A stretch of 64,000 bases of DNA from Patescibacteria group bacterium (GCA_041649955.1 JBAZMD010000001.1:68079-132078); one strand, 5' to 3'; positions 25,344 through 62,843 are shown, counted from the first letter of the stretch. Notes: generated from the letters alone by a model not told the origin. Translations and numbers: made by a program.

Positions 25344-25372
25344 ATAATAGCAAAAATTTTGATTTTTGTCAA
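25344..25372 (-). promoter_or_regulatory. conserved extended promoter (TTGACA-17-TATTAT) upstream of the PLP enzyme gene
   Basis: Minus strand reads GGGGATTGACAAAAATCAAAATTTTTGCTATTATT. Confidence 0.55.
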
Positions 25373-25376
25373 TCCC

Positions 25377-26237
25377 CTATTTTTGTTCTTCTTGCTTCCT
25401 AGATTGTACAATTATAGCTTTTTCTACTAGTTCAATATCATTAGGAAGTTTCTTCGCTTCAAAGTCGCCATTATTATCTTGTGAACTAATTTTTTCATAA
25501 AGTAACTTTAATCTATTTTGTTTTTCATCAGTAAGATTCCAACCTTTTTTGAAATCTTCCGTAGATAAAGGGATGTCATATCTGTATAAAATTTCGTTTT
25601 TAATAAAACCGGCATTTTTTAATAATTCTAATAAGGCTTGTTCATCTGTGATAAATTTTTCAACTGCTACTTTTTCTGCAATAATCTTTTCCCTTTCTGT
25701 ATAAAGATAATTAGTCATTTGATTATTTCGAACGGCCGGTGAAACTAAAGCGGATAAAATAAGCTTGCCATCATTTTTTAAAACCCTATTCACTTCTGAT
25801 AGAGCTTTTATCTGTAAGGGTTTTGGAAGATAATCTAAAACCTGTTTTATGGTAATTATGTCGACTGATTTATCATTCAGGGGAATGTCAATAATATCCC
25901 CTGGAAGTTTATCATAACCCTTTTTATCAGGAATCTCATTAAGCATGTCTAGATTCCTGTCAATAAAAATTGTTTTAATGTTAATTCCTTTGTCTTTTAA
26001 TTTCTTCTCAAATTCTTTATTAAAAAAATCCCCGCATATTCCGGGACCGCAACCAATATCAGCTAAAATAATTTCTTTTTTCTTAGCTATTTCTTCAAGA
26101 TCTAAACCGCGAAACATATTCTCTAATACGTCTTCTCTGGCCTGATAACCACGCAAGGATTCTCTATAATTTTTTATCCTCCAAGTATCTCTTGAAACAA
26201 TGTCGCCAGTTGAAACTCCTTTTTCAATATTTGTCAT
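25377..26237 (-). CDS. class I SAM-dependent methyltransferase
   Basis: 286 aa. Motif I ILADIGCGPGICG and a post-motif acidic residue. Confidence 0.7.
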   Translation of the reverse strand: MTNIEKGVSTGDIVSRDTWRIKNYRESLRGYQAREDVLENMFRGLDLEEIAKKKEIILADIGCGPGICGDFFNKEFEKKLKDKGINIKTIFIDRNLDMLNEIPDKKGYDKLPGDIIDIPLNDKSVDIITIKQVLDYLPKPLQIKALSEVNRVLKNDGKLILSALVSPAVRNNQMTNYLYTEREKIIAEKVAVEKFITDEQALLELLKNAGFIKNEILYRYDIPLSTEDFKKGWNLTDEKQNRLKLLYEKISSQDNNGDFEAKKLPNDIELVEKAIIVQSRKQEEQK

Positions 26238-26266
26238 AATTTTGATTATATTTAAAAAAAATTAAG

Positions 26267-26614
26267 CTATTTTGAACCGGAATTTAATAAATTTTCAATT
26301 ATAGATAATTTATCTCCTGAAATATTCTTTAAAATTTTTGAGAAATAGTCAGTAGTAACATCATTTGTAACTTTTTTAGTTATGGCTTTAATTTCTTTTT
26401 CAGAATAATTTTCTTTAAGAAAATTATCTATTTCTTCATAGTTGAAATTTCCGTCCTTTGATTTATAACCTTTTTCTGTTAATGCTTCAACAATAATATT
26501 GGTTGATATTAAATCTCCCAATTTCTTTACGCTATTATTAATTTCGCTTTCCGAAAATTCAAGCACATTAAGAATTTTATAAATCTTTTCAATTTCTTCA
26601 GCGGCTATATTCAT
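26267..26614 (-). CDS. hypothetical protein (115 aa)
   Basis: ORF in an operon-like series with 26640-27065 and 25377-26237. No recognisable motif. Confidence 0.4.
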   Translation of the reverse strand: MNIAAEEIEKIYKILNVLEFSESEINNSVKKLGDLISTNIIVEALTEKGYKSKDGNFNYEEIDNFLKENYSEKEIKAITKKVTNDVTTDYFSKILKNISGDKLSIIENLLNSGSK

Positions 26615-26639
26615 ATATTTGTAATGACTAAAAAATTTA

Positions 26640-27065
26640 TTATATTTTTTTTGATTTTTCCATTTTAATTTCTCTGTCCAATTTGATACGTTGAATTGCG
26701 CTCTTTATCCCCTCTGAAAAAATGAGTATTCCCATTCCTGTAACGGATATAGCAAGGGTTTCTGCTGCATGAATTTCCCCTCTTGTTAATGCTTGTCCCA
26801 TAATATTTATCATTTGTTCCTGATTTAAAAATGCTATTCTGGACATTTCTAAACCAGCAAGCGTACTAAGGGTTCCGAAAAATTTAGCAGCCGTATCTTC
26901 CAATTCATGAGGTCTGAGAATATTTAAAACATTTTTTATTTTATCAAAGACAGATTTTTGTTTTTCTTCAAAAAAATCCTTACTTAATTTTTCTGGATTT
27001 TTTTCTTGATCTATTTGTTGTTCCGGAGTTAGTATCTCTTCTGGAATTGGTTTTTCTCCGTTCAT
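26640..27065 (-). CDS. hypothetical protein (141 aa)
   Basis: ORF immediately downstream of a conserved-type promoter. Confidence 0.4.
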   Translation of the reverse strand: MNGEKPIPEEILTPEQQIDQEKNPEKLSKDFFEEKQKSVFDKIKNVLNILRPHELEDTAAKFFGTLSTLAGLEMSRIAFLNQEQMINIMGQALTRGEIHAAETLAISVTGMGILIFSEGIKSAIQRIKLDREIKMEKSKKI

Positions 27066-27125
27066 ATATTTACCTCATTAAGATTGTTTTTAAACAATCT
27101 TTTAATTGATTATTTATCTATTTTC

Positions 27126-27154
27126 AGAATAGCATATTTTAAGGAATTTGTCAA
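27126..27154 (-). promoter_or_regulatory. promoter TTGACA-17-TATTCT
   Basis: Minus strand reads GGTTAATTGACAAATTCCTTAAAATATGCTATTCT and shares the ATATGCTATT core. Confidence 0.5.
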
Positions 27155-27196
27155 TTAACCGTTCAGTTAACGCTAAGGAATGACAATTTCAACTGT

Positions 27197-28054
27197 CTAC
27201 TTTTTAATCTTTAAAATATAAATTGGCATAAATTCCGTATAAGTCCAACGAGGAGCTTCTACAATTGCTTTAATGGCAAAATATTTTTTAAGCATATTCT
27301 CAAATTCTTTTTTAAAAAAAGTAATATGAATGATTTTACCACCGTGTTTCTCTATATTGTGTATTTTCCAAACATCTTCTTTTCTAAGTTTTATTTCCCC
27401 TTTTTCCAAGGCAGGATTAAAAAGATCAAACATTTTTTTCACAGACCATTCTTTCGTTTTTTCGTTGTATATTTTTTTCTTCCATTTTGTATAGTATCCT
27501 AGGGCAAACCAAAACATAAGCCAAGTGGTTTTTTTCTGATTATATTGTTTTTGAAAATAAGAAAAATTTTCTTGCGGTTTCTCCGGCAAATAAATAAAAT
27601 TGCGCGTAATAAAATATCCATCGGGTTTTAAAAGTTTGTTGATGTTTTTTAATAATTCAGGATGAAGTTTAACCGGTATATTATTAAGAGAAGCATCAGC
27701 AAGTACTGCGTCAAAACAATGCTCCGGCAAAAATTGTACCATTTTTAACCAATCGCATCTCATCATTAAATTCTTATCATCGTCTCTAAATTTCATTGTT
27801 TGATACATTGATTCAATGACATTAAAACTTATATCAATTGCTAAAGTTTCGCAGCCCAAACCAATGGCCATGTCTCTTAATTCCGGCGTAGCGCCCAAAA
27901 CTAAAACACGCGGATCCTTTTTTCCCTTAATGGCTAATTTCAAATATTTTTTATAAATATCTAATTCTTCTTTTATCGGCGCTGAAGACCCTTCCCGCTT
28001 AGCGCGGGAAGAAGCTACTTTTTTTATATCCCAACGTGACAATATTGTTTTCAT
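27197..28054 (-). CDS. methyltransferase-fold protein, paralog 1 of 3 (motif VLVLGATPELRD)
   Basis: 285 aa. Aligns with 38786-39673 and 39646-40479 over LGxTPExRD ... NNIP ... LKPxGxFIT ... KYFxI. Confidence 0.5.
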   Translation of the reverse strand: MKTILSRWDIKKVASSRAKREGSSAPIKEELDIYKKYLKLAIKGKKDPRVLVLGATPELRDMAIGLGCETLAIDISFNVIESMYQTMKFRDDDKNLMMRCDWLKMVQFLPEHCFDAVLADASLNNIPVKLHPELLKNINKLLKPDGYFITRNFIYLPEKPQENFSYFQKQYNQKKTTWLMFWFALGYYTKWKKKIYNEKTKEWSVKKMFDLFNPALEKGEIKLRKEDVWKIHNIEKHGGKIIHITFFKKEFENMLKKYFAIKAIVEAPRWTYTEFMPIYILKIKK

Positions 28055-28093
28055 ATTATTATTTATTATTTTAAACTTTTTTAGTCTTTAATT

Positions 28094-28122
28094 TAAAAAT
28101 AGCAAAATTTAGTCTTTTGTCA
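28094..28122 (-). promoter_or_regulatory. weaker promoter TTGACA-16-TATTTT
   Basis: TGTCAA at 28117-28122. Confidence 0.3.
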
Positions 28123-28134
28123 ATGATAAAAATG

Positions 28135-28180
28135 TAAAAAAAAGAGGCCAGATGTTTCCAATGTTGAAAAACACCTGGCC
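28135..28180 (-). terminator. intrinsic terminator after the small gene (GGCCAGGTGTTT...AAACATCTGGCC then T8-9 on the minus strand)
   Basis: Hairpin plus poly-T, seen directly. Confidence 0.5.
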
Positions 28181-28196
28181 TGGCAAGGGTTAATTT

Positions 28197-28433
28197 TTAA
28201 GCCCATCTTATTGTGGATCCAATTCTGAATCCACATTCTTCCGCTACTGCAGTCGCCTTTTGAAACTCTTCGTTAAATTTTTGTGCTTGAACAAGATCCT
28301 GATTATCACATGCATTCCGAACTTTAAGAGCCATTTCTTTTAATTTCTGTATAACTCTTCCACTGGCACTATTCTGAGGCCAAATTCCAAAGACGGAATG
28401 AAAATTCTTTATATTTAAATAAATTTTTTTCAT
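28197..28433 (-). CDS. small monocistronic protein (78 aa), possibly Nif11-like
   Basis: Own consensus promoter, strong SD (AGGAGGAAAG) and own terminator. C-terminal AVAEECGFRIGS resembles the Nif11-domain end AIAKEAGFSI. Confidence 0.5.
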   Translation of the reverse strand: MKKIYLNIKNFHSVFGIWPQNSASGRVIQKLKEMALKVRNACDNQDLVQAQKFNEEFQKATAVAEECGFRIGSTIRWA

Positions 28434-28540
28434 CTTTCCTCCTTTTTCCCTTGTTTTTCAAGGGAATTTCTGAAAAATTTGATTTCTTGTTTTTAAACCC
28501 TTGTTATTAAATTACAAAGAACTTTATCTTTTATGTTAAA

Positions 28541-28569
28541 ATAATAGCATATTTTTTGATTTTTGTCAA
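28541..28569 (-). promoter_or_regulatory. conserved extended promoter TTGACA-17-TATTAT
   Basis: Minus strand reads GGGGTTGACAAAAATCAAAAAATATGCTATTATT. Confidence 0.6.
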
Positions 28570-28585
28570 CCCCTTTATTAAAAAT

Positions 28586-28616
28586 TCAAAAAGGCGAGAA
28601 TTAATCTCGCCTTTTT
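28586..28616 (-). terminator. hairpin AAAAAGGCGAGA-TTAA-TCTCGCCTTTTT, bidirectional terminator
   Basis: Perfect stem flanked by A/T runs. Confidence 0.55.
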
Positions 28617-30668: not shown

Positions 30669-30816
30669 CCCTCACCCTTCGACGATAATATTCGCCCTCG
30701 TATTTTCCAATTGCCTTTTATAAAATAAAAATAAATTTTCTTGAATCCAGATTAAACTGAATAAATTAGTAAAGACAGGCTCGTATTTGGAAAATAACAT
30801 CGTCGAAGGGTGAGGG
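30669..30816. repeat. long-loop inverted repeat IR-3 (CCCTCACCCTTCGACGAT / ATCGTCGAAGGGTGAGGG, perfect 18-bp arms, ~112-nt loop)
   Basis: Seen directly. Immediately upstream of the mpg start. Confidence 0.45.
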
Positions 30817-30823
30817 ATAAACT

Positions 30824-30856
30824 AAAGCCCTAGCTTTTTAATTAAGCTAGGGCTTT
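30824..30856 (-). terminator. palindrome AAAGCCCTAGC-TTTTTAATTAA-GCTAGGGCTTT after the giant gene
   Basis: 11-bp perfect arms. Confidence 0.5.
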
Positions 30857-30881
30857 AAAATTAATATCCTATTCTAACAAT

Positions 30882-33800
30882 TTATTTCGCGGCTAAGAAT
30901 TTCGGCGTGACTAAATTCTCGGCAAAATCTGAAATTGTTCCGCCGTCAGAATAAGTTTCAGCCTTAGAAATAGTCATTACCGGCACTTTGCTGTAACCAT
31001 TGTTGGTTAAAGCTTTGGCGGATAATTTATATTTCTTGCCGTTCTGAATCAGATAAATCTGAGAAGTTCCCGTGTATTTAACCAATGTTCCATTAGGATG
31101 TTTAGTCGTGGAATCAATCGTATCGCCTAAAGGATAATTGAATTTGGATAATAAATCATCAGGCACCCAAGTCACCAATTTCCATTTCGGATCATTGAAA
31201 AGTTTCTGATAAATCGCTGAAGATTTAACCGGTCTCAATTTGCCGTCAGAAACCATGAATACTGCCGAAGCGCTTAAACCGTGAAGCGATGTAGTCTTGC
31301 CTCTGAATAATGAACCGTCGCGGAATGTCATTGCTACGCCTTCAGAATATTTCGCAAATTCTTCAGAAGTAACCTTCTTGACTGTTGAGAAATTGGATGG
31401 ATAACCCCAAGAGAGATAAACATTAAGATGCGGGAAAACGTGCGCCTTGCCGTCCAAAATCATATAAACCGCGCCTGGTTGAGCAGTACAAGTCGGACAA
31501 ATAACCAAATCTCTATTTTTGAGATTATAAGTTATAACTTCTGCTGTTTCTTCTGATTCAGAAATAATTATTGCTGAAATTATTGAAGAGAGATTAAAAG
31601 TCTTATCTCTGAAACGGATATAAACCACTTTTTCTCCCTTACCAACTGGTAGTAACCAAGAACGAGTAGCTTGATACGGTTCCCAATTAATACCGACAAA
31701 ATCAATCGTATTACTAATCATCATTTCCGCGGCATCAGTAGCAGTAATGTTTAAAGTAACATTTCTGGAAGTAGTTTTCGCGGCACCACTATTTATCTTT
31801 AAGGATAAATCTTTTGGACCAAGATTACCTGCATTGCCACCACCTCCTGAACTGCCACTCATTGGGGTCGAATCTCCGCCAGCAGTAACAAACTTTCCTC
31901 CGGTAATACCGCCAGGTGTAAAATGGTTTGTGGTAACAATTATAACATTATTAGTTGCATCGCGAACCACTGATTTATAATTTTCCCAAGTGTTTGTGGT
32001 GTCATCAAAATATTTTGGCGTAATATCAGCTTCAGTATATCCATAATCTGTAATTAAATCCGGATCATAAGGGAATGTAATCTTTACGTCATTATCAAAT
32101 TGAGTGATTTCTTGACCAGTAGAGTCCTTAGCCGTGAAATCATAGTTAACGCCAAGCGGTTTATCTTTAGCATCCGGTTTCACTGATACCGTAGTTTGAT
32201 TTTCATCACCAACAGTCGGCGTAATAGTTACGGTAACTGTGCCACTGCTGGCTAAAGCTCCGGCTGGAATTTCAAGCGTCAGACCATTTGTAAGTTCAAT
32301 AGTTTTACTGTCTGAAGCGTTGAAAGTCGTAGTTTTAGCTTCAGGAACGGCAAGACCTGTGGTAACAAGAGTTAAATTCTTAGTTTGAGCGCCTGCTACG
32401 GTTATAACTTCAGTCGCAGCGCTTTCATAAAGGACTCCATCAATTTTGGCCGTGGCCTTAACATACCATGTTTCACCGGACTTAACTTTTAAAGTATAAG
32501 TTCCGTCAGAAGCCATTGTACCGGTTCCCTTATCCTCAGACCAAGCTTGTATCATTGCTTGTTTTCTAACGCTGTCTAAAGTAACCTCACCGGTGATAGT
32601 GGCATCTGATAAACTGAATTGAAGATCCTTACCTGTTACATTGGAATCGCCAACCGTCACACTGAGTAATGGCGGGTTAATCAAATCTCTCGCATCCCAA
32701 GGAGGAATACCGGCACCAATTTTGAAAGTACCACTGGTAACATTTAAAGTATAAGTGCCGTCATTTCCGGTAAAAGTACCAACACCCAAACCGCCCGGAC
32801 CCTTAAAATCATTTTTGGTCGTTTCATCACCAAAGTCAGCATAGACCCAAACTCCACTCATACCAACATCATCCGGATCCGTGATTGTACCGCTGATTGT
32901 TTTATCAAGTTTTTTAAGTTGGAAATTACGAGTAGTTGTACTATCGGCAATAACGGTTGATTTTACGTCTTCGGCTACTATTTTGTATTTATCATTATCA
33001 TCTCCAAAATTCATCATCGGATCAATAAAAGCGTCAACGTACCAACTGCCTGCTGAAACTTTTAATGAATATTTATCATTAACACTGCTTGGAGCAAATT
33101 CTGTTTGCGACCAGCCGCCATTTTCTTTATCACCATTGATAAAAGCGCGAACTCCTGTCACAACCGTATCTGTTCCTGCAGTATAAGAACTATCGCTATT
33201 AGTATCAAGATAAAATTTACCTTCAATCGTAGCATTATTCGGTGCCACCACTAAATCAATTTCTTTACATCCGGTTGTTTCGTCAGTACAAGTATCGCTT
33301 TCACCAACAGTAACAGTTTTAGTTACGGTTAAAGTATATTTAGAACCCGGAGGCGTATTTAAACCTAATTCATAACTGCCGAGCGGAACTTTAATTTCAG
33401 TATAACCATTAGCTAATCCTCCGCCGGCAAAACCACCTTTATCCATACCTGCTCCCATTGCTCCGCCGCCACCGCTGCCGCCACCTACAGCTGTTCCACC
33501 ACTACCTGCATCGCCGCTTCCACCTGCCATCATTTTCGGATCACCGAAATCAATAAAATCATTTACTGTCGGATCCGTATCTTTAACCCAAACTCCACCC
33601 CAAATATCGGAAACACGATTACCGTCAGCATCCACTACATTTACTTTAAGCAGACCATCGGCTACCTTTAATAAAAAGTCATTATTATCAGAAGTTTGAT
33701 TGGCGGTTATTGTTACTTGTTGCGGACCACCTTGATAAATATATTGAGTTGACATTGGCATAATCATTACGCCCCAATTTCCTTCACTGACAGTTAAATC

Positions 33801-38225: not shown

Positions 38226-38253
38226 TTGACACATTTTTTAAATATGCTATTAT
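38226..38253 (+). promoter_or_regulatory. conserved-type promoter TTGACA-16-TATTAT (CATTTTTTAAATATGCTATTAT)
   Basis: Plus strand, directly upstream of the RAM-domain ORF. Confidence 0.55.
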
Positions 38254-38299: not shown

Positions 38300-38542
38300 A
38301 TGGAAAAAGTAGAGGCTCATGTCTTTTTAAAAGTAAAAACTTCGGAAGAGGCAGCGGAAAAAATATTGAAAACATTACGCTCTATTGAAGGAGTGGTTAG
38401 GGCGAATATGGTAACGGGGATTTACGATATGATTGTCAATGTTAAGAGTGAAAATCTCAAAACGCTGGGAGAACTTATTGCATGTAAAATCAGTAATATA
38501 GAAAATGTAATATCCAGTATTACCTGTATTGTTGTAAAATAG
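38300..38542 (+). CDS. stand-alone Lrp/AsnC ligand-binding (RAM) domain protein
   Basis: 80 aa. The HVFLKVKT...IEGVVRANMVTGIYDMIVNVKSENLKTLGELI pattern matches the AsnC C-terminal domain. Strong SD AAAAGGAGGAG. Confidence 0.6.
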   Translation: MEKVEAHVFLKVKTSEEAAEKILKTLRSIEGVVRANMVTGIYDMIVNVKSENLKTLGELIACKISNIENVISSITCIVVK

Positions 38543-48210: not shown

Positions 48211-48561
48211 CTAATTGTCCCGTCCGTATCCGCCTCTGCTTCCACCGCCGTATCCACCGCGGCTTCCGCCACCACCACCAAATCCTCTTCCACCACCGGT
48301 TCTTGGTCTTTCTTCTCTTGGTCTAGCTTCGCTGACCTTAAGATTGCGGCCGTCGATTGGTTGGTTGTTGAACATTTCAATGGCTTTTGCGGCTTCGTCT
48401 TCTGTGGACATTTCCACAAAACCGAATCCTTTGCTTCTACCGGAATATTTATCGGTAATAATACTCGCTGAGACAACTGTTCCGGCCTGGCCGAAAGTTT
48501 CTTTCAATTGATCGTCAGTGAGATTATATGATAAATTTCCGATGTAAAGTTTCTTTTCCAT
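48211..48561 (-). CDS. RNA-binding protein (RRM domain) with a Gly/Arg-rich tail
   Basis: 116 aa. RNP-2 LYIGNL and RNP-1 KGFGFVEM. Tail GGGRGFGGGGGSRGGYGG. Confidence 0.85.
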   Translation of the reverse strand: MEKKLYIGNLSYNLTDDQLKETFGQAGTVVSASIITDKYSGRSKGFGFVEMSTEDEAAKAIEMFNNQPIDGRNLKVSEARPREERPRTGGGRGFGGGGGSRGGYGGGSRGGYGRDN

Positions 48562-48761
48562 ATAACTCTAACATTTTATGCGCGGGTAAGTTTTAACACT
48601 TATAAGCGCAACTCTTTTAAATTAATTTTCCCTGAACTCGACCGCGCATCATATTTAGATGCGTAATATTAAATTATATTAACTACAGGGCTACTTTTCC
48701 AATATATACCTTTTTAGATAATTGTCAAAAAAAGTTATTAACAGCTTTTACATCATTTATT

Positions 48762-53001: not shown

Positions 53002-53238
53002 TTATTTAATTAATTCTGTTAATTTATCAAGTTTTTTATGAAACACGGAAACAATCTTGCCGAATTGATTGCTCGGAATAAGAATTATTGTTTCTGCCGG
53101 AGTCAAAAAAGCCACCAGCTTATCGCCGCTTTTTATTTTCAATTTTTTGCGGATTTCGGCCGGAACTACAATCTGTCCCCGTTCGCCGACTGTGGCGGTA
53201 TCAAAACAAATTATGCTTTCAAAAAAATCTTTTTTCAT
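53002..53238 (-). CDS. AbrB/MazE/SpoVT-type DNA-binding protein
   Basis: 78 aa. GQIVVPAEIRKKLKIKSGDKL matches the swapped-hairpin barrel motif. Confidence 0.7.
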   Translation of the reverse strand: MKKDFFESIICFDTATVGERGQIVVPAEIRKKLKIKSGDKLVAFLTPAETIILIPSNQFGKIVSVFHKKLDKLTELIK

Positions 53239-53259: not shown

Positions 53260-53700
53260 TGATTTATATGATACTTCATACAAATCATATTATAGCTAAT
53301 CTAAAATCTTCGTCAACCCCCACACCAAACTTAGCGCTTGATTTACATATTATAAAAGTCGTAAGACGGAAGCCGCTTCGCTCTTATCTCTTCATATTAA
53401 AAAAGCCTTACGTTGAGTTGTGGTGTGGGGGTCAACCCCTCTGTGGACAAATTACAAATAACTCTAACAAAATAAATAGGGGTGAGAGAACTTGTCTCAC
53501 ACCCCCCTGGAGGATAACAGTGTATAAAGCTGTTATATCGATATTAGTGTTTTAAGGCGGTATTCCCCTATAATGGGACATGAGGACCTCCTATTTTTAG
53601 CAATTTAGGTAGCGCTCAAATTTGATCCCTTTCAGGATCTGGCTAGCGCTAAGCCATTGCTTTCATAAAAACCACCTCCTTTATATTATGATATAAACGA
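53260..53700 (-). promoter_or_regulatory. ~440-bp non-coding structured leader region upstream of the AbrB-HlyD-ABC operon
   Basis: Promoter-like TTGACA-16-TATACT at about 53700-53730 and TTGACG-17-ATAATA at about 53295-53325. Tiny SD-preceded ORFs MKAMA* and MSHYRGIPP*. Long inverted repeat CCCCCACACCA...TGGTGTGGGGG and hairpin GGGGTGAGAGA...TCTCACACCCC. Confidence 0.3.
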
Positions 53701-53733
53701 GTATATCACATTTTAAAATTTTGTCAACTCTTT

Positions 53734-54281: not shown

Positions 54282-54695
54282 TTATATACTCGCTATTTGG
54301 ATATTTAGCTCTTCCTGTTGTCTTCTTAGTGTGTCTCTAGCTTGAAAAACTAGAGAATTCTTATCTTCAATTCTAACCTTATTCAAAGATAAAGTTGAAG
54401 AGTTCTCAACAGAATTGACCGGTTTTACTATATTCACCTTTAGAATATTGAATTCGATTTTTCCAATCTCTTTTTTTACCGGTTTTACTAAAACCTGCGA
54501 AACTAATTCAACGGGCTGAGCAACGGTAGATAAATCATTATTACTTATCTCTATACTCATCGGCAATACTTCTGGCATTGTTGTTACCTTGCTTACAACC
54601 GGTGTAAATTTGTTTTCCAAATTTGTAGTAGAAGCATAAGCTCCTATGGCAGTAAACACAACAACAACTAACAGAATTTTTTGAAATTTATTCAT
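54282..54695 (-). CDS. secreted or membrane-anchored hypothetical protein (137 aa)
   Basis: N-terminal signal/anchor MNKFQKILLVVVVFTAIGAYA. SD GGGAGG. Confidence 0.45.
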   Translation of the reverse strand: MNKFQKILLVVVVFTAIGAYASTTNLENKFTPVVSKVTTMPEVLPMSIEISNNDLSTVAQPVELVSQVLVKPVKKEIGKIEFNILKVNIVKPVNSVENSSTLSLNKVRIEDKNSLVFQARDTLRRQQEELNIQIASI

Positions 54696-54784: not shown

Positions 54785-54812
54785 ATAATAGCATATTTTT
54801 GAATTTTGTCAA
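54785..54812 (-). promoter_or_regulatory. conserved extended promoter (GGGGGTTGACAAAATTCAAAAATATGCTATTAT)
   Basis: Seen directly. Confidence 0.55.
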
Positions 54813-54962
54813 CCCCCTCACATGTGGAAAACCATAAAGGGCATACTGTCTTTCGTTTTTTTATATATACACTGATTTTATCTTATCTATATGCTTATTT
54901 TTAACTTTATGCCTATTAAACTGTAATTTCCAAGAAAGACAATGGTTTTCCTTGTGAGGGGG
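54813..54962. repeat. long-loop inverted repeat IR-2 (CCCCCTCACATGTGGAAAACCAT / ATGGTTTTCCTTGTGAGGGGG, ~105-nt loop)
   Basis: Arms nearly perfect. Termini resemble IR-1. Confidence 0.45.
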
Positions 54963-54990
54963 CCAAGAGCAAATTTGGGGATAAATAAAA

Positions 54991-55010
54991 GGGGCGATTT
55001 CTCGCCCCCC
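54991..55010 (-). terminator. hairpin GGGGCGA-TTTC-TCGCCCC
   Basis: Seen directly. A T-rich tract follows on the minus strand. Confidence 0.5.
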
Positions 55011-55029
55011 GTTTAAATACTTACTATTC

Positions 55030-55473
55030 CTATTCTTTTAGCTTCTTCATCCATGCCTTTAAACATTCTTCTACTTTTGGAAAGTCCTGAAACGTTGTGT
55101 TATCAGGACAGGAGATAATAATGACCATACTCTTACGTTCTATGACCGGATGCACCAGAACGCACATATCTTCCATGTCAAAGATGTTAAATTGATCATT
55201 ATCAATATCCCCAACATTTACATATGAAGCTGTCTTCCTGTGCTGCTTATACTGAAAAGTAAGAATAATGCCGGTATCTCGCGCAACTTTAGGATTTAAA
55301 ACTTCATAATCCATTATCTCTTCAATTTTCTCGGCTCCATAGAACATCAACTTGCCCACTTTTATTTTCCGCTGCTCTAATAAAATATATTTAAGCGCGG
55401 GAATATTATTCAGCTCCTCATCTATCTTTTCCGAATCTACTAATACATTATTCACTGCTGTTGTTGCGCCCAT
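55030..55473 (-). CDS. hypothetical protein (147 aa)
   Basis: Strong SD AAAGGGGGGGG. Own promoter and terminator. Confidence 0.45.
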   Translation of the reverse strand: MGATTAVNNVLVDSEKIDEELNNIPALKYILLEQRKIKVGKLMFYGAEKIEEIMDYEVLNPKVARDTGIILTFQYKQHRKTASYVNVGDIDNDQFNIFDMEDMCVLVHPVIERKSMVIIISCPDNTTFQDFPKVEECLKAWMKKLKE

Positions 55474-55527
55474 TATTGCCCCCCCCTTTTTTTTCTATTC
55501 AACGAACTTTAATTTTTATATGTTTTA

Positions 55528-55555
55528 ATTATAGCATATTTTTGATTTTTGTCAA
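55528..55555 (-). promoter_or_regulatory. conserved promoter TTGACA-16-TATAAT (TTGACAAAAATCAAAAATATGCTATAAT)
   Basis: Seen directly. Confidence 0.55.
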
Positions 55556-55585: not shown

Positions 55586-55795
55586 TTAATACGCCTTCTT
55601 ATTCATACAGGCCTCCAAGATTTCTCTGAATGTCCTTTTATCCGATTTATCCGCATTGGGACAATGAGAAATTGGTTCTATTGGTAAAATTCCTAATCCC
55701 CTTAAAGTTTTCCTAACCTCATCCGCTTTAATCGCAGAATTGGGATTAGTAGGAATCTGCCAATAACCTGGATGGTTATTATCAAAAATGTCCAT
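55586..55795 (-). CDS. hypothetical small protein (69 aa)
   Basis: ORF with SD AGGAGG. Confidence 0.35.
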   Translation of the reverse strand: MDIFDNNHPGYWQIPTNPNSAIKADEVRKTLRGLGILPIEPISHCPNADKSDKRTFREILEACMNKKAY

Positions 55796-55897
55796 TTTTC
55801 CTCCTTTATATTAATAGCATAGCATAAAATTGAGAAATGTCAAGATAGTTAAATTTAACTGTAATTTTCAGAAAAATAATAATCCCCATATGGGGAC

Positions 55898-55926
55898 TTG
55901 ACAAAAATCGGAAAATATGATATTTT
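55898..55926 (+). promoter_or_regulatory. conserved promoter family on the plus strand (CCCCATATGGGGACTTGACAAAAATCGGAAAATATGATATTTT)
   Basis: Same extended consensus in opposite orientation. Confidence 0.55.
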
Positions 55927-55990: not shown

Positions 55991-56473
55991 GTGAACATGT
56001 TTAATTTATTGGTGGCAGCAATGCTTATAGCCGCTCCCAAGACATATACAGTTCAAGGGGGTCCGGGACTTAGTTGCGACGGTTTCATATTTAGGGGTTC
56101 GGTAGACTACGGAAAGGTTGGTCTACAAATTTCGGAGTCCATATATTACAACATCGAGAAGAGTTACAACTTTCTTCACAGAGCAGAGTTCAGAACACTG
56201 CTTACCGGGACTGATTGTGACTATTTCTTTGTAGGGGGAGCTATCAATGAAACCAAAGGAAAGATTCCTACTACTGGTGTGGGAATAAGTGCCGGAGTGG
56301 GAGGTAGATTCACTTCTTGGTTCATTATAGAAGTGGGTCTTATCTGGGAAGTGTTCGGGGAATTCGGCGGAACATACAAATATGTATGTGACCGCAATTC
56401 ATTTGATAACTCATCCAGTAATAAATCAAAGTACGGTTGCATTTTCAATGTAACTGTTCCTCTGATAAGGTGA
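55991..56473 (+). CDS. secreted beta-rich protein of unknown function, compositionally atypical (GC-richer)
   Basis: 160 aa. Very strong SD GAAGGAGGAGGTG. Signal peptide MNMFNLLVAAMLIAAP. Codon usage visibly differs from neighbouring genes. Confidence 0.5.
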   Translation: MNMFNLLVAAMLIAAPKTYTVQGGPGLSCDGFIFRGSVDYGKVGLQISESIYYNIEKSYNFLHRAEFRTLLTGTDCDYFFVGGAINETKGKIPTTGVGISAGVGGRFTSWFIIEVGLIWEVFGEFGGTYKYVCDRNSFDNSSSNKSKYGCIFNVTVPLIR

Positions 56474-56573: not shown

Positions 56574-56969
56574 TTATATTTGACATCCGGGATATCGCTC
56601 TGTGGGGATTCTTTCCCCGCCATTGTGATTTTGCGTCATTGCAATCTTTCGTTCAATGTTATCGCACCTTATACATTGAACACTGCCAAGTTTTTGAACC
56701 AATCGCAGAAATATACAGCAATCTTTCCCTCTGCCTCCTCCGCATTTTTTGATGTCGGTGATCTTTATTTCTTTTTCAAGTTCTATAACTTTCAGTTCAT
56801 CAGTTTTTACCGCTATTGCCGCAATAATGCCATCTCCAAAAAACAACACCGCTGTTTCGTCCAAATTGCAATGAGAAAATACACCTTGTATCGGACCTAC
56901 TAAATTACCACAACTGATACCTTCCATTCCTTTATAGGATACTACTGTTTGTTTCGGAATTTGTTCCAT
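56574..56969 (-). CDS. Cys-rich hypothetical protein (131 aa)
   Basis: SD AAGGAGGTG. Cys clusters GISCGN, FSHCNLD and CGGGRGKDCC...CIRCDN. Confidence 0.45.
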   Translation of the reverse strand: MEQIPKQTVVSYKGMEGISCGNLVGPIQGVFSHCNLDETAVLFFGDGIIAAIAVKTDELKVIELEKEIKITDIKKCGGGRGKDCCIFLRLVQKLGSVQCIRCDNIERKIAMTQNHNGGERIPTERYPGCQI

Positions 56970-57034: not shown

Positions 57035-57063
57035 ATTTAAGCAAATTTTTTGATTTTTGTCAA
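57035..57063 (-). promoter_or_regulatory. conserved promoter (GGGGTTGACAAAAATCAAAAAATTTGCTTAAATAATA)
   Basis: Seen directly. Confidence 0.5.
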
Positions 57064-57078: not shown

Positions 57079-57825
57079 TTATTCTTTGACCAATTCAACA
57101 GACAAGCTTTCAAGAGGGATTCCTTGATATTGCTTTTTGCTTATCTCTTTATTTTCCAATAAAATATTGGCAATAAATCCCACTTTTTTTATTTTATTCA
57201 AATAATCTTCTTTTAATAACGCTCCTGCCACGCAACCGGATAATAACTCTTCATTATTTCTTTGCTCGTCCGATAATTCTTTTAATAAAACAATATCAGA
57301 AACATACATTCTGCCTCCTCTTTTCAAAACCCTATAAGCTTCTTTAAACGTTTTTTCTTTATCCGGAGTAAGATTTATGACGCAGTTTGTTATTATAACA
57401 TCCACGGTATTGTCTTTAATCGGCAGATTTTCTATTTCTCCTAAAATAAATTCTAAATTTTTTAAATTATTATTTTTGGCGATTGATTTTGCTCTTTCAA
57501 CCATTGCCTCGGTCATATCTATTCCGATAACTTTGCCGTTTTCACCAACTTTTTTTGCGGCCAAGAAACAATCAATACCAGCCCCTGATCCCAAATCCAA
57601 AACCGTATCCCCTTCTTTTATCTTGCTTAGAGCTACCGGATTCCCGCAGCCAAGACCAAGATTCGCGCTCCCTGCTACTTTGAGATCATTTTCCGAATAT
57701 CCTATATCTTTTGAAATATTAACGCCTTTTCCGCAACTACAGCTGCAACCGCATTGAGAACCGCTCTTCGCCAATTCTTCATATTTACTTTTTACGATTT
57801 GTTTTATATCTTTAGAATTTTTCAT
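57079..57825 (-). CDS. arsM: arsenite S-adenosylmethionine methyltransferase-like (ArsM-type) methyltransferase
   Basis: 248 aa. N-terminal Cys cluster CGCSCSCG, motif I VLDLGSGAGID, and downstream Cys ITNCVINL. Confidence 0.65.
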   Translation of the reverse strand: MKNSKDIKQIVKSKYEELAKSGSQCGCSCSCGKGVNISKDIGYSENDLKVAGSANLGLGCGNPVALSKIKEGDTVLDLGSGAGIDCFLAAKKVGENGKVIGIDMTEAMVERAKSIAKNNNLKNLEFILGEIENLPIKDNTVDVIITNCVINLTPDKEKTFKEAYRVLKRGGRMYVSDIVLLKELSDEQRNNEELLSGCVAGALLKEDYLNKIKKVGFIANILLENKEISKKQYQGIPLESLSVELVKE

Positions 57826-57952: not shown

Positions 57953-58384
57953 TTATTTTCTAAATGTCAGAGAAGAGAAGAAAGCAGGCAAGGCCTCAAT
58001 AATACGGCGCCGAAAATCAGCCTCTACTTCTAAAAATGGTTTCTCTTCTTGGATAGCCACTTTTAACATCCCGAATGTATTACCAATTAGAGCTCGGTGA
58101 CCCATTTCGTCTTCTACTTCCTTAAGTTCATCCTGATATTTCTGAAGTCCTAATTTGATGCTCATTACCAAACCATCTATCCTGGCAGGCTGATTTGAGA
58201 ATTTAACAATTTGCAAGACCTGGTATATATGTTTTAAGGTATCTTCCTGAATCCGCTTAACTTCTACTGTATAAAAATTACTATTTTTTTGGGCTAACCT
58301 TAATACATCTTGTTCTCTTTCCAGAATTTCTTTTATCTCTTCCCACTGTTTTTGATAAAGAACTTCTTTGCTCATTTCAATCAC
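57953..58384 (-). CDS. hypothetical protein
   Basis: The ORF-track start is GTG. The SD-supported start is the ATG at 58375 (AAGGGGGTGATTGAA-ATG, MSKEV...). Confidence 0.45.
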   Translation of the reverse strand: MIEMSKEVLYQKQWEEIKEILEREQDVLRLAQKNSNFYTVEVKRIQEDTLKHIYQVLQIVKFSNQPARIDGLVMSIKLGLQKYQDELKEVEDEMGHRALIGNTFGMLKVAIQEEKPFLEVEADFRRRIIEALPAFFSSLTFRK

Positions 58385-58405: not shown

Positions 58406-58434
58406 AATATATCATAATTTTTACTTTTTGTCAA
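58406..58434 (-). promoter_or_regulatory. promoter TTGACA-17-TATATT
   Basis: Seen directly. Confidence 0.45.
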
Positions 58435-58475: not shown

Positions 58476-59066
58476 TTATACAGTGGCATCTCTCCTTTCT
58501 TTCACAAATCCTATCCGCTTGTTTTGTGCTGTCATTTTTATAAAGTAAGCGAGCGTTTTTTTATACATATCCATATGGTGCTGTTTGCGATCCTCAATAT
58601 ATGCAATTCTAATGCGCCGATATGAGAGCGGAAATGCTTGAAAATATTTCCAAGCATTCTTATTCCTCCGCAACGCCTTATAAATATCTTTGGGAACTGC
58701 AAATTTATTAGTTTCATCTATTTTCGGATTGAATGCATGCGCGATAGCTTTAAGTCCATATTTTGTCATCTTTTTTTCTTTTATGAGCTCATATATGCGC
58801 TCTCTATTCATCTGCGAAAGCCCGCTTCTTGATTTGCGCGGTGAAAAACGTTGCGCAAAACGCTCTTTGTCAATCTTTTTAACAGTGCTGTCAATCCACC
58901 CATAGCAAAGAGCTTCCAGGACCGCATCGTCATATGAAATACGAGGTTTCCCGGTTTCTTTGCGATAATATATAAGCCATATTTCTTTTTGGTTTTTATG
59001 ATTTTTTATCAGCCATTTCCGCCAATTTTTCCTATTGGTTACGTAAAGTGTATTTTTAATTTCCAT
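58476..59066 (-). CDS. YdeI/OmpD-associated family (bacteriocin-protection-like) protein
   Basis: 196 aa. WRKWLIKNH...EIWLIYYRKETGKPRISYDDAVLEALCYGWIDS...QRFSPRKSRSGLSQMN matches the family pattern. Confidence 0.6.
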   Translation of the reverse strand: MEIKNTLYVTNRKNWRKWLIKNHKNQKEIWLIYYRKETGKPRISYDDAVLEALCYGWIDSTVKKIDKERFAQRFSPRKSRSGLSQMNRERIYELIKEKKMTKYGLKAIAHAFNPKIDETNKFAVPKDIYKALRRNKNAWKYFQAFPLSYRRIRIAYIEDRKQHHMDMYKKTLAYFIKMTAQNKRIGFVKERRDATV

Positions 59067-59156
59067 ATTTTTATAATATCATTTTTTGTTCAAAAGTACC
59101 AGATTTAAAAAAAATCAGGGGCGAACATAAGTTCGCCCCTTTATAATTCTCTCCTT

Positions 59157-60914
59157 TCATTTAAGATTATCGTTTATCGCTTTATAAGCCTTTTGAATAT
59201 TCCAGCCATCTCTATTACAGAGATGGTAAACAAAATTGTGGAGTTCTTTAAGATCGTATTCATCGTAGATAGAAATAAGCTTTCGAGTAAGAACAAAAAG
59301 ATGTTCTGCTATCAAATCATTGTCTGTCCTTTTTGTATCCACGTGAAGTTTCCCGCTTTCTGTGACCGTGATAATACTTGCGGCCATCAGCTTATTCAAA
59401 ATTCCCATGCATTCGTTGACGTATGGAGCCACGGTTGGATTATTAAAATTACTCTGTTCCAACATTCTGATTAAGTGAGAAATAATCATGGCAGCAAGAC
59501 TTGAGAAAGCTTCTTTTCTAATTTCATCACTGAGCGAACCATTTTCAATTGCCTGACGAACCCCTTCAATATCAAGCAGTGTTGCTTTCATTTCCTCAAC
59601 CTTTGACTTATTATCGCCAAAGACCTCAATTAAACGTTCATTAATACAGAAACAATGTCCAAATTCGTGGCCAAAGACGTCCAAGTAAGCGAATTCTTCT
59701 TTCAAAAATTTCATGGCCCAAGTTGAACTTTCCGGGTCAAGCACTTTTTGAATAAGACTCTGAAATCCGTGAAAACGCTGTTTCATGGATTCTTGATCTA
59801 AAAAAACTTTCATTCCCAGTGCTTGCGCTTCCGGATAATTTGGCACTGACTGACCGGCTAAACGAAAATCAATATTGGAACCGCTAGCCAAAATAGTCAG
59901 AAAAACTCCCACATCAGTTCTCTTAATCTTTTCAACGGCCCTTGGGTCAAATTTCTTTGCGAGATCGCTCATTTCTTTGCGCATAAGACCCAATTCTTTC
60001 GCATGACAACCTGTTCGCCATAATAAACGGTATTCCGGCGCTACGCGAATTGGAACCTCATAATCACTTTCCATCATATGAACAGGAATAAGACGACGGT
60101 CAGAACTGATTTCTATCCATTTTTTATCAACTTCTATCCAAAGAGTTTCCATTTGTTCCAAATCCTTATTAATCAAAGCAGTGCGAAGTGCTAAAAAATA
60201 TTCCCGATAATCAGTATCATCCGGCAAATTCTTTGCCAGTTGTTTTAGAATCTTGGCAATTCCATTAATTTCAATCGGAAACATCTCGACAAGCGGAATT
60301 TGTTTTGCCTTTTCAATTTGCTTTGCAGTAAGCGGTTTGGTATAAGGATTATTTGGACCCCTGGCAAGTACTGAATACTTATCGGTTTTCCCAAATTTTT
60401 GAATCAATTCCTTAAGTTCATCCGCACTCAACTTGCTTGTCCGAAACGGAATGACAACCCATTTCCACCACTTGCTGAAAAGATCATCAAAAAGCGTGCC
60501 TATTTTGTATCCGGCCTCGGCAATAAAATTTTCTTCATCAAACGCCAAAATATTAGGGCATGCCATACAGACATCTTTTAGGGCTGCGTGAATCGCATCC
60601 TGACATGGACGGACGACCAGCGAATAAAAAAATGACAACTTAACGGCGTCATCTTTTGGCAGTTGAGCACCTGCCGTATTGGTTCTTCTGGCCGCGTATT
60701 CCACTGCCAAATCAACCGGCACATTGAAATCAATTGCAATTATAATTTTTGCAATTTGATTTCTGATTTTCTTATCATTTATAAGAAAATAGTCAACACT
60801 GTCCATCATTTCCTTGAGTACCTCTGTGGGTTCTGACAAAATAAATTCTTTCGGCCTTTCTTTCAAAATCTCAATTAACTCCGCAGAGTATTCCTTTGCT
60901 TTTTTCAAATCCAT
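59157..60914 (-). CDS. HExxH-motif protein, putative zinc metallopeptidase-like (585 aa)
   Basis: FGHEFGHCF. SD AAGGAGGTGGGAG. Confidence 0.4.
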   Translation of the reverse strand: MDLKKAKEYSAELIEILKERPKEFILSEPTEVLKEMMDSVDYFLINDKKIRNQIAKIIIAIDFNVPVDLAVEYAARRTNTAGAQLPKDDAVKLSFFYSLVVRPCQDAIHAALKDVCMACPNILAFDEENFIAEAGYKIGTLFDDLFSKWWKWVVIPFRTSKLSADELKELIQKFGKTDKYSVLARGPNNPYTKPLTAKQIEKAKQIPLVEMFPIEINGIAKILKQLAKNLPDDTDYREYFLALRTALINKDLEQMETLWIEVDKKWIEISSDRRLIPVHMMESDYEVPIRVAPEYRLLWRTGCHAKELGLMRKEMSDLAKKFDPRAVEKIKRTDVGVFLTILASGSNIDFRLAGQSVPNYPEAQALGMKVFLDQESMKQRFHGFQSLIQKVLDPESSTWAMKFLKEEFAYLDVFGHEFGHCFCINERLIEVFGDNKSKVEEMKATLLDIEGVRQAIENGSLSDEIRKEAFSSLAAMIISHLIRMLEQSNFNNPTVAPYVNECMGILNKLMAASIITVTESGKLHVDTKRTDNDLIAEHLFVLTRKLISIYDEYDLKELHNFVYHLCNRDGWNIQKAYKAINDNLK

Positions 60915-61130
60915 CTCCCACCTCCTTGTGGTTAAATTTAATTTTTTTCAATGAACAACTATTCCTCCTTTAATTTAATTATTTATATATTAATTTATTT
61001 TTTGGAAAATGTCAATATCAAAAAAAGACATTATTACTGCAGGTATTATTGATTGCACGAAAACCATTTGAATAAATTTTGAATAATAATACCGGGTTAA
61101 TCGCTTAACCCGGTAAATACTTATTTTTTA

Positions 61131-61523
61131 TTACGCCCACCTGAAAGCGGAATTTTCCAACTTCGCAATATCCTCTTTTGAGAGAACGGTCATAACCGGT
61201 CTTTCACCCCAATCAGGATTAGAAATACTGAGATATTCCAGAGAAATAGCCTGCTTACTATCGGGACTAACGAGAAGCGGCAATTCTTTTATCTCATTCC
61301 TTGTTTTCGGAAGTTTTTTAAGCACTTCCGGAAATAAACTGCAATCAGCGCAGAAAAACGGCTCATGCGACTTATGACCATTAAGCTTTACAAGAGCAGG
61401 AAGGAAACTTCCCATACCGTGTTTTTTCTCTATCAATCCACCTTTGACAATCCTCCAGCCATTAAGCTTTACGCCCTGCAATTCGCCTAATTTTTTAGGG
61501 TACTCATTTTTTAAATTTTTCAT
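61131..61523 (-). CDS. hypothetical protein (130 aa)
   Basis: SD AGGAGGTAAAG. Conserved-type promoter, with a weaker -10, at about 61545-61573. Confidence 0.4.
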   Translation of the reverse strand: MKNLKNEYPKKLGELQGVKLNGWRIVKGGLIEKKHGMGSFLPALVKLNGHKSHEPFFCADCSLFPEVLKKLPKTRNEIKELPLLVSPDSKQAISLEYLSISNPDWGERPVMTVLSKEDIAKLENSAFRWA

Positions 61524-61589
61524 CTTTACCTCCTTCTAGATAAAAAGATAACATAAAAATATTTTTTTGTCAATATCAAAAAAAGCCCT

Positions 61590-61943
61590 CTATGAAGGCT
61601 CTTTTTTAAAAATTTGCTTTTGTGCCAACAATAAACTTATTAATACTAAAATATTTAAAATCAGAGAAATGACATCAAAAATACCGACTTCATCTGTTAT
61701 TGATAATATTGCGTTAAATAGGGAGAAAATAATTGAGAATACGAAAATTATTTTAATTCTTTTTATTAATCCAAAAAGCGCAATGGCAAAAAATAAGGGT
61801 TCAAGAAATAATAATATTTTAAGTATTAAATAATTTTCGTAGGAAGCAAATTTAAAAAATGAAAAATAAACGGCGATTATGCTCCAAAAAATAATGCTTA
61901 TTATCAGAAGTATCTTGCATAAAATTAAAGGAAAAAATTTCAT
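61590..61943 (-). CDS. small integral membrane protein (117 aa)
   Basis: Three hydrophobic helices. Confidence 0.4.
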   Translation of the reverse strand: MKFFPLILCKILLIISIIFWSIIAVYFSFFKFASYENYLILKILLFLEPLFFAIALFGLIKRIKIIFVFSIIFSLFNAILSITDEVGIFDVISLILNILVLISLLLAQKQIFKKEPS

Positions 61944-61960
61944 AATTTTAACTTTCGGCT

Positions 61961-62434
61961 TTATTTTTTTCTAAAAACTTTAATTTCTGAAAGATATTTT
62001 CTGCTCAAAAAAAGAGCGCCCAGTATAATAGCCGGAATAGATATGATCATTGATTCAAAACGGGAAAGAATAAGCATCAATAATCCAATGATAAGAAAAA
62101 TAAATCCTCCCAGTCGCTCATGTTTCCATGCAACGATAATCAGTATAAGCAAAGCAAATGACGGCAATAAATGCATAAAAAGAGGTAGAATAACTCTCCA
62201 GCCGCTGTATTCAGAAAACACATCAAGCGAAAACAAAGATAAAAATACGACAAATCCAATGCTTAAAATTCTCGGCAGCCAATAAATAATTTTATTCATA
62301 TGATTAATATATTTATTTATAAAGATTGATTTAATCATAGCAAAAATGGAAAAAATAACAAGGTGAAATAAAATAGCGAATCTACGTTTGGTATTATAAA
62401 TTTTAATTATTCCATTCCTACAATTTGGCCTCAT
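61961..62434 (-). CDS. integral membrane protein (157 aa)
   Basis: Four hydrophobic helices. Confidence 0.4.
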   Translation of the reverse strand: MRPNCRNGIIKIYNTKRRFAILFHLVIFSIFAMIKSIFINKYINHMNKIIYWLPRILSIGFVVFLSLFSLDVFSEYSGWRVILPLFMHLLPSFALLILIIVAWKHERLGGFIFLIIGLLMLILSRFESMIISIPAIILGALFLSRKYLSEIKVFRKK

Positions 62435-62471
62435 TTGGAAACCGCGGCTTTAATTTAATAAAGATTAAAAA

Positions 62472-62500
62472 AACCGCCCTAATTTTCATTAGTGGCGGTT
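62472..62500 (-). terminator. hairpin AACCGCC-(16 nt)-GGCGGTT followed by T7 on the minus strand
   Basis: Seen directly. Confidence 0.5.
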
Positions 62501-62515
62501 TAAATTCGAATTTAA

Positions 62516-62758
62516 TTACATTTTAAGAAATGTCCATCCATACTTTACAAACATGCCTATCATAGCCAGGATACTTCCAAAAACCATTCCGATTCCGGCG
62601 ATACAGGTAACATTGAATGATTGATGAAATTTGGCCCAATCTTTTATAATTGGCCAGTAGCTCCCTTTTACTCCGTCTGTGAACATTGAGATAGCGAATA
62701 CTATGAATGAAAGTATCAGTATACCCAAACCCATCTTAACGAGAAAAAAATTAGTCAT
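62516..62758 (-). CDS. small membrane protein (80 aa). The ORF-track start at 62833 would lie inside its own promoter, so it is reassigned to the SD-supported ATG at 62758.
   Basis: AAAGGGGGAGAG then ATG (MTNFFLVKMGLGIL...). The promoter -10 is at 62815-62820. Confidence 0.45.
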   Translation of the reverse strand: MTNFFLVKMGLGILILSFIVFAISMFTDGVKGSYWPIIKDWAKFHQSFNVTCIAGIGMVFGSILAMIGMFVKYGWTFLKM

Positions 62759-62814
62759 CTCTCCCCCTTTATTGCTTTTTAAAAAACTATTGTTAGTTTT
62801 TATATTATATTTAA

Positions 62815-62843
62815 ATAATAGCACATTTTTCACTTTTTGTCAA
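62815..62843 (-). promoter_or_regulatory. conserved promoter TTGACA-17-TATTAT (TTGACAAAAAGTGAAAAATGTGCTATTAT)
   Basis: Seen directly. Confidence 0.55.

Follow-up and report, generated by a model that had tools for sequence, protein, structure and literature searches.

Why one promoter-like sequence should recur, apparently spacer and all, ahead of so many small genes is the question raised by a 64,000-nt stretch of DNA from a Patescibacteria group bacterium (GCA_041649955.1, JBAZMD010000001.1:68079-132078; hereafter the window), in which TTGACA is followed at 16–17 nt by a TATTAT-like hexamer at a series of sites between positions 25,344 and 62,843. An earlier note had listed 12 such sites and read the likeness of their spacers as the mark of duplicated promoter cassettes or of an overlapping regulator-binding site, and took the sites to mark a candidate co-regulated set of small accessory genes. 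We consider it likely that the copies are instead independent promoters of the housekeeping sigma-70/sigma-A type with an extended -10 element, each near the optimum for an AT-rich Patescibacteria bacterium. The motif would look repeated because small accessory or ORFan genes, transcribed separately, crowd the region and bring many promoters with them, and because strong promoters of this clade obey a spacer grammar (an A-run, a short G/C-rich centre, an A/T-run and TnTGC). RNA polymerase holoenzyme would bind such a site via sigma regions 4, 3 and 2 and start transcription ~7 nt after the -10, the product being a short mono- or oligocistronic mRNA with a Shine-Dalgarno leader and an intrinsic terminator at its end.

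Promoter sites in the window

All 12 of the coordinates listed previously hold a promoter-like site of the form TTGACA / 16–17 nt / TAnnnT on the strand given for them, the sole correction being that the site placed at 28094–28122 spans 28096–28123. Six further sites bring the total to 18: five on the minus strand (60987–61015, 55816–55843, 53700–53727, 48701–48728 and, with TTGACG, 53289–53316) and one on the plus strand (1413–1440). The -35 hexamer is exactly TTGACA in 17 of them and TTGACG in the other, the spacer is 16 or 17 nt long, and the -10 agrees with TATAAT at 4–6 of its 6 positions. Such sites are far more frequent in the window than expected: the pattern TTGACA-N13/14-TGNTAT, present at 14 of the 18, matched 14 times against an expectation of 0.10, TTGACAAAAWTCRR 6 times against 0.01, and GGGGTTGAC, in which GGGG stands beside the -35, 5 times against 0.14. 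A de novo repeat search of the window independently recovered the promoter family, as D2/D4/D8.

Placement argues in the same direction. Although 89.9% of the window is coding, every one of the 18 sites is intergenic (P about 1e-18), so the motif is not equally frequent in coding sequence but confined to the non-coding 10%, and every one is oriented with the gene downstream of it. A start codon could be assigned for 17, at 20–139 nt downstream of the -10, with a GGAGG-like Shine-Dalgarno sequence ahead of it at most sites, and terminator-like hairpins lie behind many of the downstream genes. The earlier identification of the listed sites as promoters is therefore borne out by hexamers, spacing and intergenic, co-oriented placement, and the downstream genes are indeed mostly small and separately terminated.

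Other parts of that description were too strong. The motif had been called near-identical about 10 times over, which overstates the case, as only 2 sites match the strict 29-mer when as many as 3 mismatches are allowed, and the spacers depart from the consensus by degrees (identities of 17, 16, 16, 15, 14, 14, 13, 13, 12, 11 and so on down to 9 of 17). Nor is the upstream GGGG general, since it precedes the -35 in 4 of the 10 sites that had been classed as strong, with GGGGAC in addition at 55898. Two of the genes named as targets, ArsM-like (57079–57825) and YdeI-like (58476–59066), are not downstream of any listed copy and each have a weaker promoter of their own, mainly an extended -10, and the label "Nif11-like" given to a 78-aa protein found no Pfam support at E<=0.01. 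The 18 sites are as follows, with the genes that they would serve; "subfamily" denotes a group of tight copies discussed below.

28541..28569 (minus): subfamily, reference copy, GGGG-TTGACA-AAAATCAAAAAATATGC-TATTAT; 78-aa gene 28433..28197, 107-nt leader
25344..25372 (minus): subfamily, GGGGA-TTGACA-AAAATCAAAATTTTTGC-TATTAT; pyridoxal-phosphate (PLP) enzyme gene 25290..23839
54785..54812 (minus): subfamily, 16-nt spacer, GGGGG-TTGACA-AAATTCAAAAATATGC-TATTAT; 137-aa gene 54695..54282
55528..55555 (minus): subfamily, 16-nt spacer, without GGGG, TTGACA-AAAATCAAAAATATGC-TATAAT, 12/12 hexamer match; 147-aa ORFan 55473..55030
57035..57063 (minus): subfamily, GGGG-TTGACA-AAAATCAAAAAATTTGC-TTAAAT; 131-aa Cys-rich gene 56969..56574
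55898..55926 (plus): subfamily-like, GGGGAC-TTGACA-AAAATCGGAAAATATGA-TATTTT; plus-strand gene of ~158 aa, 55997..56473
27126..27154 (minus): general type, TTGACA-AATTCCTTAAAATATGC-TATTCT; three-gene operon 27065..25377 (141 aa, 115 aa, 286-aa methyltransferase)
28096..28123 (minus): general type, TTGACA-AAAGACTAAATTTTGC-TATTTT; 285-aa methyltransferase gene 28054..27197
38226..38253 (plus): general type, TTGACA-CATTTTTTAAATATGC-TATTAT; 80-aa stand-alone RAM-domain gene 38300..38542
48701..48728 (minus): TTGACA-N16-TATATT, without the TG extension; RRM RNA-binding protein gene 48561..48211
53700..53727 (minus): general type, TTGACA-AAATTTTAAAATGTGA-TATACT; structured transcript of ~230 nt with mini-ORFs
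53289..53316 (minus): GGGGG-TTGACG-N16-TATAAT; AbrB/MazE-like gene 53238..53002 and the efflux operon behind it
55816..55843 (minus): general type, TTGACA-TTTCTCAATTTTATGC-TATGCT; 69-aa gene 55795..55586
58406..58434 (minus): general type, TTGACA-AAAAGTAAAAATTATGA-TATATT; 140-aa gene 58375..57953
60987..61015 (minus): CTTTTTTTGATA-TTGACA-N17-TAATAT; DUF7897 gene 60914..59157
61545..61573 (minus): CTTTTTTTGATA-TTGACA-AAAAAATATTTTTATGT-TATCTT; 130-aa gene 61523..61131
62815..62843 (minus): general type, TTGACA-AAAAGTGAAAAATGTGC-TATTAT; small membrane-protein gene of ~80 aa, 62758..62516
1413..1440 (plus): general type, TTGACA-AGTATAAAATTTTTGC-TATAAT; 58-aa plus-strand gene ~1466..1642, called in assembly L029

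Spacer grammar of the clade and the question of a regulon

The inference from conserved spacers to duplication or a regulator site presupposes that spacers are otherwise free to vary, and it is this premise that fails on comparison with other Patescibacteria. Scanning a genome collection with a 22-base version of the motif identified the closest relative, Patescibacteria group bacterium STD1_195 (L024), which carries a syntenic stretch at 94% nucleotide identity; four other sequences (L179, L180, L029 and L030) match the window at 100% identity and thus give no polymorphism information. We compared the regions upstream of PLP-gene orthologs in ~15 relatives, ranging from 94% nucleotide identity down to ~40% amino acid identity, and found the orthologous promoter in L024, L031, L035–L039 and L042–L047. 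These promoters retain TTGACA, AAA(A/G), the A/T-run, TnTG(C) and TATwAT, while the central 3–4 nt of the spacer vary (TCAA, GCCT, GCTG, GGGC, ACGA, GGGG, GCCA). At the promoter of the 78-aa gene ortholog in L035, both hexamers, the leader and the spacer's 3' half are likewise retained and TTTCGGCTA replaces AAAATCAAA, so that for both genes the hexamers are kept at orthologous positions.

The same features recur at promoters that are not orthologous. When every TTGACA-N16-18-TAnnnT site was collected from 259 kb of Patescibacteria DNA, the 32 promoters with 17-nt spacers gave a matrix whose spacer consensus is AAAA-S-S-n-W-AA-W-T-T-n-T-G-C, with T, T and G each in 26/32 promoters at positions 13, 15 and 16. 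Random 17-mers drawn from the window agree with its consensus spacer at 5.3/17 positions and promoters of other Patescibacteria genomes at 8.5/17 (maximum 15), and mean pairwise spacer identity is 10.4/17 within the window compared to 9.1/17 between genomes (permutation p = 0.046). Because orthologous and unrelated promoters of the clade alike share the A-run, the A/T-run and TnTGC, most of the spacer similarity is attributable to a clade-wide promoter grammar, under which any two strong promoters agree at ~9/17 spacer positions. Such similarity is thus to be expected among the strong promoters of an AT-rich genome and is not evidence of a regulon.

This grammar has clear counterparts elsewhere. 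Bacterial spacers have been described as comprising four regions under selection, namely an AT-tract, a slight GC enrichment, a second AT-tract and a G-rich extended -10 (PMC12641261), and the clade matrix shows the same order with a weak G/C centre; however, the published 5' AT-tract is mainly T where that of the window's clade is A, and the strong promoters of this clade are conserved more tightly than the "considerable variation" reported there. The TRTG extension is common in Firmicutes (PMC12641261), and the window's sites resemble Gram-positive sigma-A/sigma-70 promoters with an extended -10 (the "-16 region", TRTG or TGn) in their TTGACA, 17±1-nt spacer and TATAAT-like -10, in the T-R/W-T-G that immediately precedes the -10 at 14 of 18 sites, and in their A/T-rich flanks, intergenic placement and Shine-Dalgarno leaders. 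They differ in that C nearly always follows the TG, the run after the -35 is A-rich rather than T-rich and a G-run often abuts the -35, and in belonging to Patescibacteria. Our literature search found no published description of promoters of Patescibacteria or other candidate phyla radiation (CPR) bacteria, and the consensus TTGACA-AAAA-SSn-AAwTT-nTGC-TATwAT therefore offers a first sequence-level sketch of a strong promoter in this group, which would aid the annotation and engineering of these uncultured bacteria.

The proposed co-regulation of an accessory-gene set is likewise unsupported, as the same promoter type occurs at rnpB, TCAA and GGGG are not kept in orthologs, and no convincing dyad is present. 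The RNase P RNA gene of this genome lies 10 kb to the left of the window (L029 7495–8021, promoter included; Rfam RF00010, 101.8 bits, missed at the gathering threshold and recovered with an E-value threshold), and 4 nt upstream of the RNA match (7527–8021) stands TTGACA-AAAACGAAATTTTCTGC-TATTAT (7495–7523), whose upstream part, TTTGATA-TTGACA, resembles the copies at 61573 and 61015. The RRM-protein gene in the window is driven by the same promoter type. In relatives of ~80% identity, two orthologous promoters keep hexamers, spacer 3' half and leader but carry GCCT, GCTG or TTTCGGCTA in place of (AAAA)TCAA, and do so without GGGG. In 28 other genomes the exact 22-base pattern TTGACAAAAATCAAAA...TGCTAT also stands ahead of unrelated genes, some of them apparently rplM- or hrcA-like. 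We considered whether AAAATCAAAA might be a universally favoured spacer and rejected this, since composition-matched scans of viral contigs gave 25 matches for TC, 11 for CT, 28 for TG and 28 for GT; as the TC spacer is not privileged in these controls, the matches in the 28 other genomes reflect the commonness of A-rich spacers in strong promoters. The sites would then be ordinary strong promoters, probably constitutive, of monocistronic accessory and ORFan genes, with expression most likely set by promoter strength and not by a shared regulator.

A tight subfamily and its possible origins

Only five or six copies are tight, sharing (AATA)GGGG-TTGACA-AAAATCAA: those at 25372, 28569, 54812, 55555 and 57063 and, loosely, 55898. 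Several of their properties weigh against treating all 18 sites as independent housekeeping promoters. The first 8 spacer nucleotides are identical in 4 of the 18, an outcome reached in 0 of 20,000 simulations (p<1e-4) of 18 promoters under a column-independent model built from other genomes, and sharing by three had P about 0.001; the central triplet (positions 5–7) taken alone was not significant (P(>=5 of 18) = 0.07). GGGG, often with AATA(AA) as well, recurs before the -35 of these copies, at positions that RNA polymerase contacts are not known to require. They cluster at 25–29 kb and 54–57 kb, and the sibling assembly, a species-representative metagenome-assembled genome, has only 2 exact copies of the subfamily sequence compared to 3 exact and 3 near copies in the window. 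The presence of AAAATCAA at two orthologous promoters, unlike cousins of ~80% identity, could point to a lineage-specific constraint such as a binding protein, and it should be borne in mind that promoter function is itself deduced from sequence and comparison.

Since the subfamily copies precede non-paralogous genes whose proteins are unrelated, we rejected the idea that the promoters were multiplied by duplication of entire genes; the 147-aa protein behind 55555 is a strict ORFan. When the flanks of the copies were compared, homology extended ~10 nt beyond the -35 on one side and stopped directly behind the -10 on the other, with none beyond ~45 nt, and no terminal inverted repeats or target-site duplications were seen. 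In the sibling genome (L008) a nearly identical stretch of ~44 nt stands before a non-homologous 109-aa gene. The earlier suggestion of recently duplicated promoter cassettes is plausible only for the five or six members of this subfamily, which are more alike than the grammar predicts. Among possible sources of this extra likeness we rank the copying or homogenisation of a short module above convergence on one optimum, and the latter above a lineage-specific binding protein; the likeliest course is that a ~40-nt promoter sequence was copied or homogenised within the lineage or that selection converged on one optimum.

A stronger version of the first of these holds that a portable module of ~40 nt, AATA(AA)GGGG-TTGACA-AAAATCAAAAAAT(A/T)TGC-TATTAT, descends from one ancestor and was copied by short-patch recombination or gene conversion to positions before unrelated, mostly ORFan genes, where it would give newly arisen or acquired genes a strong promoter from the outset. 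Such copying does not conflict with the sites' acting as independent housekeeping promoters; it adds a proposal on how they arose, which we regard as possible though on balance unlikely. It would account for the identity of the first 8 spacer nucleotides in four copies, which goes beyond the clade model, for the sharing of AATA(AA)GGGG outside the core promoter, for the ~44-nt stretch in the sibling, for the occurrence of copies before non-paralogous genes (at least one of them an ORFan), and for their concentration within 2.3 kb (54.8–57.1 kb) and in a region whose gene content varies between relatives. However, most of the shared positions are already constrained by the clade grammar, sharing of the unconstrained central triplet is not significant when taken alone (P = 0.07), the limits of homology at ~45 nt and the lack of terminal inverted repeats and target-site duplications give no sign of a mobile unit, and we know of no mechanism for copying 40 nt without flanking homology. 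Known systems offer partial parallels. Like phage "moron"-style cassettes, the region has small genes of unknown function with their own strong promoters and terminators, arranged head-to-tail in a variable region; unlike them, the window gave no meaningful PHROGs or PADLOC signal, and hence no phage or defence context, no integrase was found in it, and its GC content shows no marked anomaly apart from 29% GC at 26–28 kb. Correia elements (CREE) and other miniature inverted-repeat transposable elements (MITEs) likewise place a short promoter-active sequence before unrelated genes, the activity being predicted in the present case, but the subfamily lacks terminal inverted repeats and target duplication, and its unit is only ~40 nt and its copies few.

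Alternatively, a dimeric regulator such as a member of the CRP/FNR group might bind TTGA-N6-TCAA (on the other strand TTGAT-N4-GTCAA), an operator centred near -28.5 that would cover the -35 together with the spacer's first half, and so repress a small accessory regulon. The window contains 9 such sequences against 2.96 expected, 6 of the 9 being promoter sites, and TCAA was acquired by the window's lineage at two orthologous promoters; the pattern resembles FNR/DNR boxes, a resemblance that we treat as a lead rather than a test. Yet the 3 occurrences outside promoters equal chance expectation, the arms are only 4 bp long and the left one is the -35 itself, so that the added information is 4 nt and no dyad of at least 5 bp independent of the hexamer exists. 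GGGG has no symmetric partner, the flanking bases are asymmetric, TCAA gives way to GCCT, GCTG or CGGCT in relatives ~80% identical that keep hexamers and leader, and the TC spacer was not privileged in the viral-contig controls. Nor does the 64-kb window encode such a DNA-binding regulator, the only candidates being an AbrB/MazE-like protein, whose gene heads the efflux operon, and RAM-only and receiver-only proteins. We accordingly rejected the FNR/CRP-like palindrome as such, given its 4-bp arms, chance-level occurrence outside promoters and lack of conservation in orthologs, and hold an overlapping operator in general to be improbable. Still less credible, and in our judgement very improbable, is a separate transcriptional class in which an alternative group-1/2-like sigma factor with extended -35 specificity (GGGGTTGACA) reads the subfamily. 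Relatives do encode an extra sigma-70-family protein with regions 2 and 4 in exactly the variable locus concerned, and GGGG beside the -35 is enriched (GGGGTTGAC, 5 against 0.14), but the sigma gene is absent from that locus in the window, which has the most subfamily copies. GGGG is moreover found at promoters outside the subfamily (that of the AbrB-like gene at 53316, and the GreA promoter in intergenic 5301–5480) and is missing from the subfamily copy at 55555, and the hexamers are the canonical housekeeping consensus.

Independent housekeeping promoters thus remain our preferred explanation. It is doubtful that the module AATA(AA)GGGG-TTGACA-AAAATCAAAAAATwTGC-TATTAT (~40 nt) has been propagated before unrelated ORFans in a CPR lineage, or that a small regulon is controlled by GGGG...TCAA; a propagated module would be a way to wire new genes into expression in a regulator-poor genome. 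More generally, near-identical promoters ahead of ORFans could show how new genes gain expression signals in reduced genomes.

The locus at 25373–28587, in one of the two small-gene regions where the subfamily copies cluster, differs in gene content among relatives. Between the 78-aa gene and the PLP gene, L024, L031, L035 and L036 carry a separately promoted gene for a sigma-70-family protein of 431–478 aa (regions 2 and 4), which in the window is replaced by two methyltransferases together with two small ORFs. The 78-aa gene has additionally been lost in STD1_195, and a relative at 90% identity (contig P0002) has the same methyltransferase-PLP arrangement as the window. In intergenic 19035–19256, 30669–30881 and 54696–55029, long-range inverted repeats bracket ~150–190 nt (for example CCCCCTCACAAGGAAAACCAT ... 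ATGGTTTTCCACATGTGAGGGGG), and the last of these elements contributes, through its right arm, the GGGGG immediately before the -35 at promoter 54812. A leader motif, AAGTTCnTTGwA, which had been seen by eye after 3 copies and after the relatives' sigma-gene promoter, was dismissed as chance (16 occurrences window-wide against 17.2 expected); the form A(A/T)AGTTC(T/G/A)TT(G/T)(T/A)A, 12–19 nt past the -10 at 28513–28524, 54762–54773, 55498–55509 and in the sigma-gene leaders of L024 and L035, may mean nothing.

Other features of the window

The window has a GC content of 35%, many of its proteins lack a Pfam match, and an Rfam scan of it returned only tRNA-Gln. Downstream of promoter 53727, ~230 nt form a structured region (53465–53727, minus strand; fold z-score -3.07, no Rfam match) containing a Shine-Dalgarno sequence, a 5-codon mini-ORF (MKAMA*) and an intrinsic terminator (53500–53482). 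Its position immediately ahead of the AbrB/MazE-like gene and the efflux operon makes it a candidate small RNA or leader. A TATAAT-like box 6–7 nt before the ATG, with no Shine-Dalgarno sequence, at 59057–59090, 23750–23775 and 20858–20885 suggests leaderless mRNAs for the YdeI-like, histidine kinase and Na/Pi transporter genes, respectively.

Two families of intergenic repeats were also found. A 152-nt repeat at 3097–3248 and 38609–38760 (90% identity) forms a long imperfect hairpin (z = -4.47) and looks like a MITE or a repetitive extragenic palindromic (REP) element, one copy lying between the LysRS and SerRS genes and the other between convergent genes. The second family (D9/D14; 1351–1385, 38124–38205 and 40582–40663) has the cores GGGCGTGGGTTACCGT and GTAAGCCGAAGGCGTTTCC.

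Among the coding sequences, methyltransferases of ~280 aa with the motif GATPELRD... form an expanded paralog family, often beside small Cys-containing ORFs, both in the window's genome (27197–28054, 38786–39673, 39646–40479) and in the sibling (L008 3819–5512, 7118–7999). Three tandem paralogs of ~480–490 aa at 41514–46868, each with a terminal phosphoenolpyruvate (PEP)-utilising mobile domain, are interleaved with a gene for the N-terminal, ATP-binding part of PPDK (42981–43925), so that the set is both split and triplicated, which is unusual. Two giant proteins, predicted to lie at the cell surface, are encoded at 10987–18165 (2392 aa) and 30882–37808 (2308 aa), the second with the internal repeats D5 and D11.

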